From NCBI RefSeq assembly GCF_017348835.2, contig NZ_CP071375.1: 64,000 nucleotides of DNA; one strand, given 5' to 3'. The notes under the pieces are model-generated. The model worked only from the letters and a program-made list of their open reading frames with translations, made no database searches and was not told the DNA's origin. This DNA comes from Escherichia coli (lineage in GTDB: Bacteria; Pseudomonadota; Gammaproteobacteria; Enterobacterales; Enterobacteriaceae). The translations under genes and the position numbers were made by a program. This document shows positions 624-64,000 of the stretch, in pieces. Positions within the stretch are counted from its first letter, which is position 1. Every line of letters starts with the position of its first letter.

Positions 624-639
624 TCGCGACAACCTGCGC

Positions 640-750
640 TTTGTTCATGTCAGATGCGGCATGAACGCCTGGTTCGGCCTACAAAGGTTTGTAAATCAGG
701 AGCTTAGTAGGCCTGATAAGCGTAGCGCAGCAGGCAATTTCGCCTCGCTT
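640..750. repeat. REP/BIME: two inverted REP-like units between convergent yajQ and yajR
   Basis: GATGCGGCATGAACGCC...GGCCTAC and inverted GTAGGCCTGATAAGCGTAGCGCA motifs typical of enterobacterial REP. Confidence 0.7.
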
Positions 751-14149: not shown

Positions 14150-14180
14150 TTAACCATTCCCATACAATTAGTTAACCAAA

Positions 14181-14211
14181 AAGGGGGGATTTTATCTCCC
14201 CTTTAATTTTT
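14181..14211 (+). terminator. Terminator-like hairpin after clpX (AGGGGGGAT-TTTA-TCTCCCCT followed by T-rich run)
   Basis: Imperfect G/C stem followed by TTTAATTTTT. Confidence 0.45.
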
Positions 14212-14226
14212 CCTCTATTCTCGGCG

Positions 14227-14253
14227 TTGAATGTGGGGGAAACATCCCCATAT
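14227..14253 (+). promoter_or_regulatory. Sigma-32 (heat-shock) promoter of lon: -35 TTGAAT, 13-bp spacer, -10 CCCCATAT
   Basis: Near-consensus sigma-32 elements read about 85-110 nt upstream of lon ATG; coordinates consistent with the lon start frame. Confidence 0.7.
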
Positions 14254-14336
14254 ACTGACGTACATGTTAATAGATGGCGTGAAGCACAGTCGTGTCATCT
14301 GATTACCTGGCGGAAATTAAACTAAGAGAGAGCTCT

Positions 14337-19349: not shown

Positions 19350-19757
<408 letters not shown>

Positions 19758-19776
19758 TTAATTTGCATAGTGGCAG

Positions 19777-19809
<33 letters not shown>

Positions 19810-19861
19810 TGACCTCTGTACTTATAACAGTTCTTATAACAACAAGTAAGGTTATTGCGCT

Positions 19862-20260
19862 ATGCAAACACAAATTAAAGTTCGTGGATATCATCTTGAT
19901 GTTTACCAGCACGTTAACAACGCCCGCTACCTTGAGTTTCTCGAAGAAGCCCGCTGGGATGGGCTGGAAAACAGCGACAGTTTTCAGTGGATGACCGCCC
20001 ATAACATCGCTTTCGTGGTGGTGAATATCAATATTAACTATCGCCGTCCGGCAGTATTGAGCGACCTGTTAACTATCACCAGTCAGTTGCAGCAATTAAA
20101 TGGAAAGAGCGGCATTTTAAGTCAGGTCATCACTCTTGAGCCGGAAGGGCAGGTGGTAGCCGACGCGCTCATTACGTTTGTTTGTATCGATCTCAAAACG
20201 CAGAAGGCTTTAGCGCTGGAAGGGGAGCTGCGCGAAAAGCTGGAGCAGATGGTTAAGTAA
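19862..20260 (+). CDS. fadM: Long-chain acyl-CoA thioesterase III FadM (hotdog fold), 132 aa
   Basis: ORF-track full length; MQTQIKVRGYHLDVYQHVNNARYLEFLEEARW. Confidence 0.92.
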   Translation: MQTQIKVRGYHLDVYQHVNNARYLEFLEEARWDGLENSDSFQWMTAHNIAFVVVNININYRRPAVLSDLLTITSQLQQLNGKSGILSQVITLEPEGQVVADALITFVCIDLKTQKALALEGELREKLEQMVK

Positions 20261-20264
20261 ACGT

Positions 20265-20310
20265 TTTGTTGTGCCGGATGCTCATGCCGCATCCGGCAAC
20301 ATCCCGAGTA
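20265..20310. repeat. Single REP element between fadM and queC
   Basis: GCCGGATGCTCATGCCGCATCCGGCAAC palindromic REP-like motif. Confidence 0.65.
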
Positions 20311-20311
20311 A

Positions 20312-21007
20312 TTACTTCAACCCGGTCTTCTGCTTCATCGCTGCCATCACCGTCGGTTTATCGGCCAGATAATGATTCAAACCGTTGGCGCGTAAATTAC
20401 ATGCCGCACATTGACCGCAACCGTCGCCTTTAATGCCGTTATAGCAGGTCAGCGTTTCGTTACGGACTAAATCCAGCTTGCCGTAATAATCTGCCAGCGC
20501 CCAGGTTTCCGCTTTATCAATCCACATCAGCGGCGTTTCAAAACGAATCTCTTTCGCCATGCCCAGACTAACGGCATGGTTTAGTGCTTTCACAAATTCA
20601 TCGCGGCAATCCGGGTAACCGGAGAAGTCTGTTTCGCAGACCCCGGTAATCACCGCTTCTGCTTTCACCTGATACGCGTAAATCGCCGCCAGCGTCAGAA
20701 ACAAAATATTACGCCCAGGGACAAACGTATTAGGGATGCCATCGGCTTCAGGTTCATAATCTGGCACTGGAATGCTGTCACGCGTCAGACTGCTGACTGC
20801 CAGCTCATTAAGCAGGGTGACATCCAGCACCTTATGCGCGCGTGCACCCAGTTTCAGCGCCAGATCGCGCGCGACGTCGATCTCTGCGCGATGGCGCTGA
20901 CCGTAATCGAACGTCACGCAATGGACTTCATCATAGTGTTGCAATGCCTGCACCAGACAGGTTGTAGAGTCCTGGCCCCCACTGAATACAACGACAGCAC
21001 GTTTCAT
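20312..21007 (-). CDS. queC: 7-cyano-7-deazaguanine synthase QueC, 231 aa
   Basis: ORF-track full length; N-terminal PP-loop SGGQDS; C-terminal Zn-binding cysteines (CGQCAAC). Confidence 0.95.
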
Positions 21008-21070
21008 AAATCATCCTGCTAAATCGATAAAACGTTATGGTAACCCCTGTGGTTAACCCGGACCAGCTCT

Positions 21071-22771
21071 TCATTGCGACGGTGCGGGTAGCCAGGCTTC
21101 GGTAAATTCAAACCAGCCGCGCGGTGTCAGTCGCACACCGTTTACTCCGGGCGGCGCGCTAATGCGATAGTGATAGTTGAACAGTGGTGTCAGCGTTGCG
21201 TCTGCCATTAACTGGCTAAACACCGTTTTCAGGGCATTAAATCGGTTTTCCTCATAAGGCATTACTTGCACGGCATCCAGCGTTGATTGCAGATGTGCGT
21301 ATGTACTGGCAGTAAAAACATGCGGCCACAGCGGATCGCAGCGCAGCCACTGTTCAAGGGTATATTCCGGTGCTTCGCCAATTAATCTGTCGCCCATCAT
21401 GAGGTCTGCTTGATCCAGTGGCGTGGCACCGTCCCAGTTTTTCGCGTTATGAAAAACAATCTTTAGCTCGCAACCTTCTTCTGCCAGCGTCGTTCGTAGC
21501 TGTTCTGCCATGGCGTGAAGTTCCACGGGTAGGTGATAAACCAGCGTCAGTGTTTCAGGTAGTTTGACTTCCTCCGGAACTTGCCATTGTGGAATGGTCC
21601 AGCCTGGAAGCAATGCATTACTGGCGGTGATCAGGTTTTCTCCGACTTCTAACGTTTGTAGTAAGCCGGATTGATGAATAATGGTGATCACTTTTCGAGC
21701 CTGCCAGAGCGTCAGTCGGGGGCTTTTGCGCAACGTTAAATAGCAAAAACCTAAACTGATGCCGCTACTGACCTGACTGACCCGTTGCAGCTCCTCCGGT
21801 TTGCCGATGGTGATTTGCACGGGATGCCGACAACTGGTTCCCAAATCTTTTTCGAAAAGCGGCGGAGTTATCCAGTACTCAACCGCTTTAAGCAGCGGAT
21901 GACGTAAATGGTAATAATCATGGCTTTCCAGGCGCACCAGCTCCGCTGTGAATTGTGTTAAGCGAAAAGGACCCGTGCCGATCAGTGGGAATTGCGGATG
22001 CGCCAGATGGCTGCAATAGCTCGCCAGCCGGTGCGCAAGCCAGTAATCAGGGCGATGTAAAAAGAAGGTCAGACACTGCGGATGGGTGACTTCAATACGC
22101 TTCACGCTAATAAATAATTGATCCAGTGCTGGCAGTTGTAACAGCATCAATAATCGCTGGTGTAAGTGTGAGGCTTTTACTGCATCGCCGTTATGCCAGT
22201 GTAGGGTTGAACGAAGATAAAAGTCCCAGCGTAACCCGTCAGTAGAGGTTTCCCAGTGATGTGCTAAATCGCCAATCGGGCGCTGGGTATTATTATCGAA
22301 GCGGGTCAGGCCGGAAAATATCTGTCCGGCGAGATGCTGCTCAGCACGGCCGGGCAAAAAGCCCGGTTGTAGCGGTTCGAGCGGGCGATAGTAGGGAATA
22401 CGCAACGTGGGTGTATCGTTTTGCCATTGTCCGCCCATAAACGGCTGTAACAGAGTGCGCAGCTCACCTGGGGCCAGTTGCGCCAGCTCCAGCACATCTT
22501 GCTGCTTTCCGGTTTCCAGTGCCTTTTCCATCATCGCATTGCGTAGCGATTCTGGCGTGACCAGAAAGCGTAATTGTCCGCGCTTTCCGCGTCCTGACTG
22601 CGCCTGCCACTCCAGCCATCCCGCCTCTTGTGCCTGACGCAACAGCGTACGAACATGGCGTTCGCTGCAAAAACAGCGTTCGGCCAGTTCGCTGACGGTG
22701 ACGGTTTGCGGCTTTCCGGCGGAAGGTTGCCACAGACGTTGATACTGGTTAAGACGGTTGAGCAGTCGCAT
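21071..22771 (-). CDS. ybaE: Uncharacterised YbaE: N-terminal SgrR-like HTH fused to periplasmic solute-binding-like domain, 566 aa
   Basis: ORF-track 21071..22786 minus; start at MRLLNRLNQYQRLWQ; family assignment from recognition of the K-12 protein. Confidence 0.85.
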   Translation of the reverse strand: MRLLNRLNQYQRLWQPSAGKPQTVTVSELAERCFCSERHVRTLLRQAQEAGWLEWQAQSGRGKRGQLRFLVTPESLRNAMMEKALETGKQQDVLELAQLAPGELRTLLQPFMGGQWQNDTPTLRIPYYRPLEPLQPGFLPGRAEQHLAGQIFSGLTRFDNNTQRPIGDLAHHWETSTDGLRWDFYLRSTLHWHNGDAVKASHLHQRLLMLLQLPALDQLFISVKRIEVTHPQCLTFFLHRPDYWLAHRLASYCSHLAHPQFPLIGTGPFRLTQFTAELVRLESHDYYHLRHPLLKAVEYWITPPLFEKDLGTSCRHPVQITIGKPEELQRVSQVSSGISLGFCYLTLRKSPRLTLWQARKVITIIHQSGLLQTLEVGENLITASNALLPGWTIPQWQVPEEVKLPETLTLVYHLPVELHAMAEQLRTTLAEEGCELKIVFHNAKNWDGATPLDQADLMMGDRLIGEAPEYTLEQWLRCDPLWPHVFTASTYAHLQSTLDAVQVMPYEENRFNALKTVFSQLMADATLTPLFNYHYRISAPPGVNGVRLTPRGWFEFTEAWLPAPSQ

Positions 22772-29722: not shown

Positions 29723-29762
29723 AAAAAACAGCCGGACGGTTTTCACCTCCGGCTATTTTTTT
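29723..29762. terminator. Bidirectional intrinsic terminator shared by convergent amtB and tesB (AGCCGGA...TCCGGCT flanked by A-run and T-run)
   Basis: Hairpin with A6 upstream and T8 downstream read directly. Confidence 0.75.
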
Positions 29763-45394: not shown

Positions 45395-45530
45395 GCTAAC
45401 AAAGTGCGCGTTGTTCATGCCGGATGCGGCGTGACCGCCTTATCCGGCCTACGAAACCGCAAAAATTCAATATATTGCAGGAGCGGTGTAGGCCTGATAA
45501 GCGTAGCGCATCAGGCAGTTTTGCGTTTGC
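45395..45530. repeat. REP/BIME: two inverted REP units after mscK
   Basis: GCCGGATGCGGCGTGACCGCCTTATCCGGCCTAC and inverted GTAGGCCTGATAAGCGTAGCGCATCAGGCA. Confidence 0.8.
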
Positions 45531-47551: not shown

Positions 47552-48846
47552 ATGAGTTATCAGGTCTTAGCCCGAAAATGGCGCCCACAAACCTTTGCTG
47601 ACGTCGTCGGCCAGGAACATGTGCTGACCGCACTGGCGAACGGCTTGTCGTTAGGGCGTATTCATCATGCTTATCTTTTTTCCGGTACCCGTGGCGTCGG
47701 AAAAACCTCTATCGCCCGACTGCTGGCGAAGGGGCTAAACTGCGAAACCGGCATTACCGCGACGCCGTGCGGCGTGTGCGATAACTGTCGTGAAATCGAG
47801 CAGGGGCGCTTTGTCGATCTGATTGAAATCGACGCCGCCTCGCGCACCAAAGTTGAAGATACCCGCGACCTGCTGGATAACGTCCAGTACGCTCCGGCGC
47901 GTGGTCGTTTCAAAGTTTATCTCATCGACGAAGTGCATATGCTGTCGCGCCACAGCTTTAACGCACTGTTAAAAACTCTTGAAGAGCCGCCGGAGCACGT
48001 TAAGTTTCTGCTGGCGACGACCGATCCACAGAAATTGCCGGTGACGATTTTGTCGCGCTGTTTGCAATTTCATCTCAAGGCGCTGGATGTCGAGCAAATT
48101 CGCCATCAACTTGAGCACATCCTCAATGAAGAACATATCGCTCACGAGCCGCGGGCGCTGCAATTGCTGGCGCGCGCCGCTGAAGGCAGCCTGCGAGATG
48201 CCTTAAGTCTGACCGACCAGGCGATTGCCAGCGGTGACGGCCAGGTTTCAACCCAGGCGGTCAGTGCGATGCTGGGTACGCTTGACGACGATCAGGCGCT
48301 GTCGCTGGTTGAAGCGATGGTCGAGGCCAACGGCGAGCGCGTAATGGCACTGATTAATGAAACCGCTGCCCGTGGTATCGAGTGGGAAGCGTTGCTGGTG
48401 GAAATGCTCGGCTTGTTGCATCGTATTGCGATGGTACAACTTTCGCCTGCTGCACTTGGCAACGACATGGCCGCCATCGAGCTGCGGATGCGTGAACTGG
48501 CGCGCACCATACCGCCGACGGATATTCAGCTTTACTATCAGACGCTGTTGATTGGTCGCAAAGAATTACCGTATGCGCCGGACCGCCGTATGGGCGTTGA
48601 GATGACGCTGCTGCGCGCGCTGGCGTTCCATCCGCGTATGCCGCTGCCTGAGCCAGAAGTGCCACGCCAGTCCTTTGCACCCGTCGCGCCAACGGCAGTA
48701 ATGACGCCACCCCAGGTGCCGCCGCAACCGCAATCAGCGCCGCAGCAGGCACCGACTGTACCGCTCCCGGAAACCACCAGCCAGGTGCTGGCGGCGCGCC
48801 AGCAGTTGCAGCGCGTGCAGGGAGCAACCAAAGCAAAAAAGAGTGA
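47552..48846 (+). CDS. dnaX: DNA polymerase III gamma subunit, 431 aa, produced by programmed -1 frameshift at 48835-48841 then Glu and TGA stop at 48844-48846
   Basis: Slippery heptamer A AAA AAG in frame at codons 428-430; -1 frame reads GAG TGA immediately after; established mechanism. Confidence 0.85.
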
Positions 48847-49483
48847 ACCGGCAGCCGCTACCCGCGCGCGGCCGGTGAATAACGCTGCGCTGGAAAGACT
48901 GGCTTCGGTCACCGATCGCGTTCAGGCGCGTCCGGTGCCATCGGCGCTGGAAAAAGCGCCAGCCAAAAAAGAAGCGTATCGCTGGAAGGCGACCACTCCG
49001 GTGATGCAGCAAAAAGAAGTGGTCGCCACACCGAAGGCGCTGAAAAAAGCGCTGGAACATGAAAAAACGCCGGAACTGGCGGCGAAGCTGGCGGCAGAAG
49101 CCATTGAGCGCGACGCGTGGGCGGCTCAGGTGAGTCAACTTTCGCTACCAAAACTGGTCGAACAGGTGGCGTTAAATGCCTGGAAAGAGGAGAGTGATAA
49201 CGCAGTATGTTTGCATTTGCGCTCCTCTCAGCGGCATTTGAACAACCGCGGTGCACAGCAAAAACTGGCTGAAGCGTTGAGCATGTTAAAAGGTTCAACG
49301 GTTGAACTGACTATCGTTGAAGATGATAATCCCGCGGTGCGTACGCCGCTGGAGTGGCGTCAGGCGATATACGAAGAAAAACTTGCGCAGGCGCGCGAGT
49401 CCATTATTGCGGATAATAATATTCAGACCCTGCGTCGGTTTTTCGATGCGGAGCTGGATGAAGAAAGTATCCGCCCCATTTGA
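47552..49483 (+). CDS. dnaX: DNA polymerase III tau subunit DnaX, 643 aa (full-length product)
   Basis: ORF-track full length; Walker A GTRGVGKTS; zinc-binding CGVCDNC. Confidence 0.97.
   Translation: MSYQVLARKWRPQTFADVVGQEHVLTALANGLSLGRIHHAYLFSGTRGVGKTSIARLLAKGLNCETGITATPCGVCDNCREIEQGRFVDLIEIDAASRTKVEDTRDLLDNVQYAPARGRFKVYLIDEVHMLSRHSFNALLKTLEEPPEHVKFLLATTDPQKLPVTILSRCLQFHLKALDVEQIRHQLEHILNEEHIAHEPRALQLLARAAEGSLRDALSLTDQAIASGDGQVSTQAVSAMLGTLDDDQALSLVEAMVEANGERVMALINETAARGIEWEALLVEMLGLLHRIAMVQLSPAALGNDMAAIELRMRELARTIPPTDIQLYYQTLLIGRKELPYAPDRRMGVEMTLLRALAFHPRMPLPEPEVPRQSFAPVAPTAVMTPPQVPPQPQSAPQQAPTVPLPETTSQVLAARQQLQRVQGATKAKKSEPAAATRARPVNNAALERLASVTDRVQARPVPSALEKAPAKKEAYRWKATTPVMQQKEVVATPKALKKALEHEKTPELAAKLAAEAIERDAWAAQVSQLSLPKLVEQVALNAWKEESDNAVCLHLRSSQRHLNNRGAQQKLAEALSMLKGSTVELTIVEDDNPAVRTPLEWRQAIYEEKLAQARESIIADNNIQTLRRFFDAELDEESIRPI
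48835..48875 (+). other. dnaX: dnaX programmed ribosomal frameshift cassette: slippery site A_AAA_AAG (48835-48841) plus downstream stem-loop CCGGCAGCCGCTACCCGCGCGCGGCCGG (48848-48875)
   Basis: Heptamer and GC-rich hairpin 6 nt downstream read directly; frame verified from the dnaX start. Confidence 0.9.
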
Positions 49484-52457: not shown

Positions 52458-52495
52458 AATGCCGGATGACCTTCGTGTCATCCGGCATTTTTCTT
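52458..52495 (+). terminator. htpG intrinsic terminator (ATGCCGGATGAC...GTCATCCGGCAT followed by T-run)
   Basis: Long inverted repeat immediately after stop, followed by TTTTTCTTTT. Confidence 0.75.
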
Positions 52496-53279: not shown

Positions 53280-53410
53280 TCAAGCCGCAGCAGATCTGCT
53301 TTCGGGCAGGTCTGCTCATCCACCTCAGGCAATACCTCTCACAGCAATTAGTTCTTCTTCCTCACTTTTCCGCTACAATTATCAACAAGTTGAATCGATA
53401 AGAGGCGGTA

Positions 53411-56794: not shown

Positions 56795-56890
56795 GGTTCG
56801 TAGGCCAGATAAGGCGTTCACGCCGCATCTGGCATTTGGCATCTCGATGCCTGATGCGACGCTGGCGCGTCTTATCATGCCTACATATTT
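56795..56890. repeat. REP/BIME: two inverted REP units after gsk
   Basis: GTAGGCCAGATAAGGCGTTCACGCCGCATCTGGCA and GATGCCTGATGCGACGCTGGCGCGTCTTATCATGCCTAC. Confidence 0.8.
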
Positions 56891-61930: not shown

Positions 61931-61954
61931 GTGCCGGATATTTGCATCCGGCAC
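61931..61954. terminator. Hairpin between convergent ushA and ybaK (GTGCCGGAT-ATTTGC-ATCCGGCAC)
   Basis: Perfect 9-bp stem between the two stop codons; flanking U-tracts weak. Confidence 0.5.
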
Positions 61955-62560: not shown

Positions 62561-62644
62561 ACACCGTCGCTTAAAGTGACGGCATAATAATAAAAAAATG
62601 AAATTCCTCTTTGACGGGCCAATAGCGATATTGGCCATTTTTTT
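62561..62644 (+). ncRNA. chiX: ChiX (MicM/SroB) Hfq-dependent small RNA, about 84 nt, with terminator hairpin GGCCAATAGCGATATTGGCC plus U7
   Basis: Sequence ACACCGTCGCTTAAAGTGACGGCATAATAATAAAAAAATGAAATTCCTCTTTGACGGGCCAATAGCGATATTGGCCATTTTTTT matches remembered ChiX including seed CUCUUUGACGGG; coordinates frame-checked. Confidence 0.9.
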
Positions 62645-63934: not shown

Positions 63935-64000
63935 TCTCGTAGGCCGGATAAGGCGTTCACGCCGCATCCGGCATCCGAGTACCATTGCCTGATGCGACGC
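63935..64000. repeat. REP elements after ybaQ (second unit truncated by window end)
   Basis: GTAGGCCGGATAAGGCGTTCACGCCGCATCCGGCA and partial GCCTGATGCGACGC. Confidence 0.75.

Follow-up and report, generated by a model that had tools for sequence, protein, structure and literature searches.

The 127-nt spacer between the convergent genes yajQ and yajR of Escherichia coli carries two inverted REP units, and we consider it likely, taking this assignment together with the account of origin and action given below, that they compose a single-copy BIME-1-type element in which a Y unit and a Z1 unit are placed tail-to-tail around a shortened L linker. That the REP pair after yajQ is real and well beyond chance was confirmed. 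In the 64,000-nt stretch of DNA that was analyzed, hereafter called the window, yajQ (plus strand) occupies 132-623 and yajR (minus strand) 751-2115 according to the annotation of K-12 and PE164, and the element lies between the two stop codons and is, accordingly, extragenic. The window as a whole is collinear with K-12 MG1655 444552-508550 (~444.5-508.5 kb) at 98.6% identity, the adk-hemH spacer being the sole replaced stretch. Bases 560-800 have a match in 5407 of 5426 complete E. coli genomes and are 100% identical to those of strain PE164 and 91.7% identical to those of K-12, whose allele differs from that of the window at 17 positions in the bin 601-800. The parts of the element and of the adjoining 3′ region are as follows.

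634-648, plus strand: 5′ flank of the element (..CTGCGCTTTGTTCATG), common to the canonical BIME-1 copy at 45405-45418
649-682, plus strand: degenerate Y-type REP (palindromic unit), GTCAGATGCGGCATGAACGCCTGGTTCGGCCTAC, 6/34 mismatches to the consensus of the initial annotation
683-706, unstranded: inter-REP linker of 24 nt, equal to the L motif without its 11-nt AT-rich core, as seen from an alignment gap against the mscK/ybaM copy
707-735, minus strand: Z1-type REP (palindromic unit), GCCTGCTGCGCTACGCTTATCAGGCCTAC, 1/29 mismatches (28/29) to consensus
729-773, unstranded: strong hairpin (CAGCAGGCAATT..AATTGCCTGTT) predicted by folding, with the 3′ arm of Z1 plus flank as its 5′ arm and the last yajR codons as its 3′ arm
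776, plus strand: K-12 equivalent of the yajQ transcript 3′ end (Term-seq, MG1655 445327; PMC7815308), coordinate checked against the K-12 sequence

The REP pair and its subtype

The two units face each other with their feet (..CTAC-24 nt-GTAG..), the tetranucleotides being CTAC at 679-682 in Y (28/34 match) and GTAG at 707-710 in Z1 (28/29). A REP unit is defined as an imperfect palindrome of 30-40 nt that agrees with the y, z1 or z2 consensus and has a conserved GTAG/CTAC tetranucleotide at its foot (PMC3333891), and both units have this foot as well as the consensus. The blastn-short search gave E values of 2.7e-5 for Y and 1.6e-7 for Z1, while 200 first-order-Markov simulated windows yielded 0 matches to Y at ≤8 mismatches and a mean of 0.005 matches to Z1 at ≤7 mismatches. 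The proposal of the initial annotation that inverted REP units form a BIME between convergent yajQ and yajR is therefore borne out, and the lack of a significant consensus match, which it had named as counterevidence, was not what these values showed. The search that it had recommended, with a REP consensus on both strands, finds the target at ≤8 mismatches but not at ≤3, where the 34-nt consensus picks out three sites (45419, 56800, and 63939), none of them in this spacer. Both units do lie in the gap that they had been said to fill, but together they cover only 63 of its 127 nt, and the strongest structure of the region is the separate hairpin at 729-773. The idea that the palindromes are chance GC-rich inverted repeats instead of REPs, which could appeal to the failure of the consensus at ≤3 mismatches and to the shuffled-like folding of Y alone, was rejected as next to impossible on the grounds of the simulation control, where nothing reached the similarity observed, the 28/29 match of Z1, and a collinear alignment to canonical BIME-1 that extends over ~120 nt with the flanks included.

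BIME-1 is a single-copy combination of y and z1 whose linker L is long, conserved, and often provided with an IHF site, and BIME-2 combines y with z2, has short linkers, and is repeated in tandem (PMC3333891, PMC1187871); naRNA4 has the composition Y-l-Z2 (PMC4550694). Four other REP-related sites of the window had been regarded as the same element type.

20273-20297, minus strand: fadM/queC, a lone short REP-like hairpin (GCCGGATGC/GCATCCGGC) found by blastn-short, without a GTAG/CTAC tail and not a BIME
45405-45530, plus strand: mscK/ybaM, canonical BIME-1 with Y at 45419-45452 (plus), a 35-nt L linker, and Z1 at 45488-45516 (minus)
56800-56884, unstranded: gsk/ybaL, BIME-2-type with Y at 56800-56833 (minus), a 15-nt linker, and Z2 at 56849-56884 (plus), head-to-head
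63939-64000, unstranded: ybaQ/copA, BIME-2-type cut by the window end, with Y at 63939-63972 (minus) and Z2 from 63987 (plus), head-to-head

All of them belong to the REP superfamily, but they comprise one BIME-1, two BIME-2-type elements, of which the ybaQ/copA unit is tandemly repeated in K-12, and one lone REP-like hairpin. The statement that the elements always stand at gene 3′ ends held for all five sites, which are located between convergent 3′ ends, and the impression that REPs are the only repeat class is consistent with a repeat scan whose sole long high-identity families (D3, D9, I1, and I2) are REP-derived. Three REP-stem-like hairpins with GCCGGA(T) stems had been missed, at 29734-29760, 52459-52490, and 61933-61952. 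Of these, the first serves amtB and tesB as a bidirectional terminator, REP42 being listed for amtB (PMC10100675), the second terminates htpG and has a T-run, and the third lies between ushA and ybaK without a T-run.

The subtype follows from the lengths of the Z units. Because Rfam naRNA4, which represents Y-l-Z2, matches 56803-56881 in the gsk/ybaL unit (71.4 bits), and this stretch contains a 36-nt Z, Z2 is the longer of the two Z units and Z1 the one of 29 nt; the composition of the yajQ/yajR element is therefore Y + Z1. Its alignment with the Y + Z1 element of mscK/ybaM (45405-45530) runs collinearly through the 5′ flank, where TGCG.(T/G)TTGTTCATG is conserved, then Y, both linker ends, Z1, and the 3′ flank, and the sole gap, as measured against this one canonical copy, is the 11 nt that removes TCAATATATTG, the AT-rich center of L. 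The canonical copy occurs at a median of 22 places per genome in 5425 of 5426 E. coli genomes, and the high repetition expected of an extragenic REP is shown by this related copy, since the yajQ/yajR element itself, being degenerate, is unique in the genome at the megablast level. The element thus shares with the BIME-1 (RIB/RIP) of E. coli one Y and one Z1 in inverse, tail-to-tail arrangement, a single-copy state, an extragenic position at the 3′ ends of transcription units, and flanks and linker ends that align with the canonical copy. It departs from BIME-1 in its linker, which at 24 nt, against 35, is missing the AT-rich core with the IHF site, in its degraded Y stem, and in a total length below the typical ~140 bp (PMC1187871). 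With BIME-2 and naRNA4 (REP325-type Y-l-Z2) it has the Y unit and the principle of an inverted pair in common, but its Z1, tail-to-tail orientation, L-derived linker, and untandem state are different. Assignment to BIME-2, for which a preference of gyrase has been reported (PMC6379681), was rejected on the basis of the 29-nt Z1 in place of Z2 and the lack of tandem repetition.

The Rfam scan of 560-840 gave nothing at threshold, including no match to naRNA4 (RF02564). Both BIME-1 linkers in the window resemble the ES036 (CssrF) sRNA family (RF02751) below its gathering score of 37.6, with 13.7 bits at 683-714 and 22.9 bits at 45454-45495, and this family may be derived from a BIME-1 linker. 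Matches above threshold were those expected in a K-12-like region.

14170-14265, minus strand: sraA
31916-32012, plus strand: 4.5S/SRP RNA
48816-48880, plus strand: dnaX frameshift element
62561-62644, plus strand: sroB (ChiX)

The element is an ordinary one that was correctly recognized by the initial annotation and is not new. A table based on K-12 annotation gives "yajQ ... REP40a", along with REP42 for amtB, REPt45 for adk, and REP46ab for gsk (PMC10100675). We take REP40a of yajQ to be the yajQ/yajR BIME, which therefore had already been catalogued, and the name rests on the table of that paper, not on annotation coordinates, because the RefSeq MG1655 record lists no repeat_region features.

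Decay, allelic variation, and origin

Compared with its canonical counterpart, the Y unit has lost its structure. When folded alone, 649-682 reaches only -10/-7.8 kcal/mol (z -0.65/-0.05), which is no REP fold and no better than shuffles, whereas canonical Y reaches -21/-22 kcal/mol (z ~-4.3); an A.C mismatch and G.U wobbles are found in its stem. Z1 (707-735) gives the expected but weak fold at -10.3/-9.5 kcal/mol (z ~-1.6), against -12.9/-13.2 for canonical Z1. Ten alleles sharing 89-100% identity all have a spacer of 127 nt and a nearly invariant Z1, and 87% of cells are paired in the canonical REP structure across them. Two haplotypes of Y exist: GTCAGAT..(G/A)TTCGGC, found in the window and K-12, contains the mismatch and wobbles, and GCCGAAT..ATTCGGC forms a perfect 7-bp stem; in addition, allele AF10 converts the A.C mismatch into A-U. 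Covariation among the 10 alleles was not above that of shuffles, a result that is uninformative rather than negative. The spacer is polymorphic, with 142 genomes at least 99% identical to the window as opposed to 5342 for the adjoining panE-yajQ spacer, and the element is present in at least 5284 of 5426 genomes. The damaged Y stem and the deletion of the IHF-binding core of L suggest age and wear in the copy of E. coli.

These traits raise the possibility, which we regard as real but rather unlikely, that the element is a passive relic, i.e., a decaying selfish repeat that is tolerated between convergent genes and has no present role, the 3′ end of yajQ being set wholly by the 729-773 hairpin and Rho. 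The degraded Y stem and truncated L are what such a relic would exhibit, as is the far greater variability of this spacer than of the panE-yajQ spacer; the 3′ end mapped in K-12 lies outside the REP stems, and one strain has exchanged the element for a 4.1-kb cassette without loss of yajQ or yajR. A relic agrees less well, however, with a Z1 that stays almost invariant among divergent alleles and provides one arm of the terminal hairpin, with a length fixed at 127 nt in 10/10 alleles and retention of the element in nearly all genomes, and with the restoration of the mismatched pair in AF10.

The strain with the cassette is E. coli CFE299 (L005 1565-1623; L014 19900-24060), in which the BIME and the final ~10 yajR codons have given way to 4.1 kb of AT-rich DNA with genes for a SEL1-like repeat protein and for a TPR protein. 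About 120 genomes cover <80% of the query at the yajQ/yajR locus. On the other side of yajQ, the divergent panE-yajQ promoter region (7-54) contains a perfect 18-bp inverted repeat, TATCCCTTAATTGTGCAT / ATGCACAATTAAGGGATA, with 12 nt between the arms; the repeat is single-copy, is conserved at ≥99% identity in 5342 of the 5424 E. coli genomes, and might serve as an operator or as a 5′-UTR hairpin. At 19400-21800 (ybaV-fadM-queC-ybaE), up to 41 differences from K-12 occur per 200 nt, where the average over the window is ~2.7, which points to a patch acquired by recombination with a distant lineage. The replaced adk-hemH spacer consists in the window of 53 nt (53281-53333) with their own hairpin, unrelated to the K-12 sequence; that of K-12 (locus L004 3270-3426) is ~157 nt long and comprises a G/C-rich, boxC-like CCCCTCG..GAGGGG repeat and a hairpin annotated as REPt45.

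The loss from L also bears on whether the element could act as a functional IHF-binding RIB/RIP element, in which IHF on the inter-REP linker would bend the DNA at the end of two transcription units. BIME-1 has been described in this role, to which we attach only a small probability here. In the window allele (AATCAGGAGCTTA), an exact WATCARNNNNTTR match is present at 694-706. K-12 and the majority of the other alleles, however, do not have this match, L has lost its 11-nt AT-rich core (TCAATATATTG), and the consensus scan discriminates poorly, as it returned 9 matches in the window versus 4.3 expected and failed to pick up canonical L. With the core of L deleted, binding of IHF at this linker seems doubtful.

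The spread of the REP/BIME family in E. coli has been attributed to a REP-associated tyrosine transposase, and the yajQ/yajR element appears to belong to the family spread in this way. Most of the Enterobacterales loci that were examined have yajQ and yajR in convergent orientation. The spacers, as read after yajQ in loci L016, L019, L020, L027, L029, and L018, vary by genus: Enterobacter, Leclercia, and Lelliottia have ~30 nt with a bidirectional terminator only, Citrobacter youngae, Citrobacter werkmanii, and Pseudocitrobacter have tail-to-tail REP doublets of their own, and in Escherichia sp. ESNIH1 a terminator is accompanied by a single REP. Lineages thus differ in what occupies this spacer, and the REPs that several of them have there are not alike in sequence.

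The 3′ end of the yajQ mRNA

In K-12, the yajQ transcript contains the BIME and ends at the foot of a hairpin, and read-through beyond it is Rho-dependent. Under each of the three growth conditions, Term-seq placed a plus-strand 3′ end at 445327 and assigned it to the antisense class with respect to yajR (PMC7815308); this 3′ end corresponds to window 776, 3-5 nt beyond the 729-773 hairpin. No 3′ end of yajR was reported on the minus strand in the same K-12 Term-seq data, and a bicyclomycin-sensitive (Rho) termination region was located at 445853 (plus strand), ~500 nt downstream (PMC7815308). These Term-seq and Rho data come from K-12, not from the window strain, and the two alleles differ at the 17 positions mentioned above. 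The remaining three BIMEs of the window likewise have reported Rho regions on their downstream side, at K-12 490200, 501531, and 509429 (PMC7815308); the four plus-strand regions correspond to window positions ~1302, 45650, 56890, and 64790, the last being outside the window, and each is antisense to the convergent gene.

The hairpin has a folding energy of -26.5 kcal/mol on the plus strand and -24.5 kcal/mol on the minus strand (z -6.5/-5.4), holds the yajR stop codon (751-753) in its loop, competes with the Z1 hairpin for CAGGC, and is kept in both Y haplotypes. The fold of the entire 3′ UTR (624-776) has -68 kcal/mol (z -5.9, or -6.5 for the K-12 allele), and in it the two REP feet pair together instead of the units folding singly. 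REP-dependent stabilization of mRNA has been reported (PMC10100675), and a model exists in which Rho terminates transcription beyond REPs and exonucleases trim the transcript back to a stable stem-loop (PMC6061677). The K-12 data are in keeping with both: the BIME is transcribed as the 3′ untranslated tail of the yajQ mRNA, RNA polymerase passes through it into antisense yajR, and Rho stops transcription ~500 nt downstream. The stable 3′ end is then at 776, at the foot of the -26 kcal/mol hairpin made from the Z1 arm and the last yajR codons, with the folded BIME just upstream, and the BIME and hairpin together probably serve as a barrier to 3′-to-5′ exonucleases that sets the end and stability of the yajQ mRNA. 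Trimming by exonucleases is thus the presumed route to the yajQ 3′ end, and the two REP units themselves may contribute to it; their share may be small, because the mapped 3′ end is at the adjoining hairpin and not at either REP stem. The arrangement resembles REP mRNA stabilizers and the protective stem-loops of Rho-terminated transcripts in its position at an mRNA end, in the Rho region downstream, and in a 3′ end at the foot of a strong stem, but it differs from REP mRNA stabilizers in that the stem at the mapped end combines a REP arm with coding sequence and is not a true REP hairpin.

Intrinsic, Rho-independent termination in both directions, for yajQ as well as for yajR, would be another explanation, since Enterobacter, Leclercia, and Lelliottia have a textbook bidirectional terminator in the position held here by the BIME, and the strong hairpin at 729-773 and a weak hairpin with a T-run on the minus strand (629-614) could be viewed as parts of such a terminator. 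The 729-773 hairpin is, however, followed by UUCAA/UUCUA with no U-run, and the scan for intrinsic terminators, i.e., a stem directly followed by a U-run, found nothing above chance, with no site on the plus strand and a single one on the minus strand, within the chance expectation of 1.2. As the BIME stems lack a plus-strand U-run and the read-through into antisense yajR is Rho-sensitive, intrinsic termination at this site is improbable.

Another, highly speculative and very unlikely possibility is that the Z1 arm has been co-opted into the hybrid hairpin as a switch. The hybrid and Z1 REP hairpins are mutually exclusive, so translation of yajR might switch the 3′ structure while the same hairpin sets the yajQ 3′ end, and one module would tune both genes. 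Ribosomes terminating on the yajR mRNA would melt the hybrid hairpin, and the Z1 hairpin would form only 15 nt past the stop codon. Work by Liang and Deutscher on REPs and translation forms the background of this idea. If the idea were true, mRNA decay or ribosome rescue would depend on yajR translation.

The assignment to a BIME-1-type element carries little weight beyond correct annotation, given that REP and BIME sequences have long been described in E. coli intergenic regions. The refinements over the initial annotation are the BIME-1 subtype, the decay of the Y stem and L core, and the position of the mRNA end at a hybrid hairpin beside the REP pair. In practice, the yajQ/yajR stretch should be masked as a repeat and be taken as neither a regulatory site nor an sRNA gene, and the properties of BIME-1 should not be carried over blindly to a degenerate copy without the IHF core. 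For the biology of the family, it offers an example of a REP arm that has become part of the hairpin at an mRNA 3′ end, and of a single convergent-gene spacer that holds either a plain terminator or REP pairs peculiar to the species, depending on the member of the Enterobacteriaceae.
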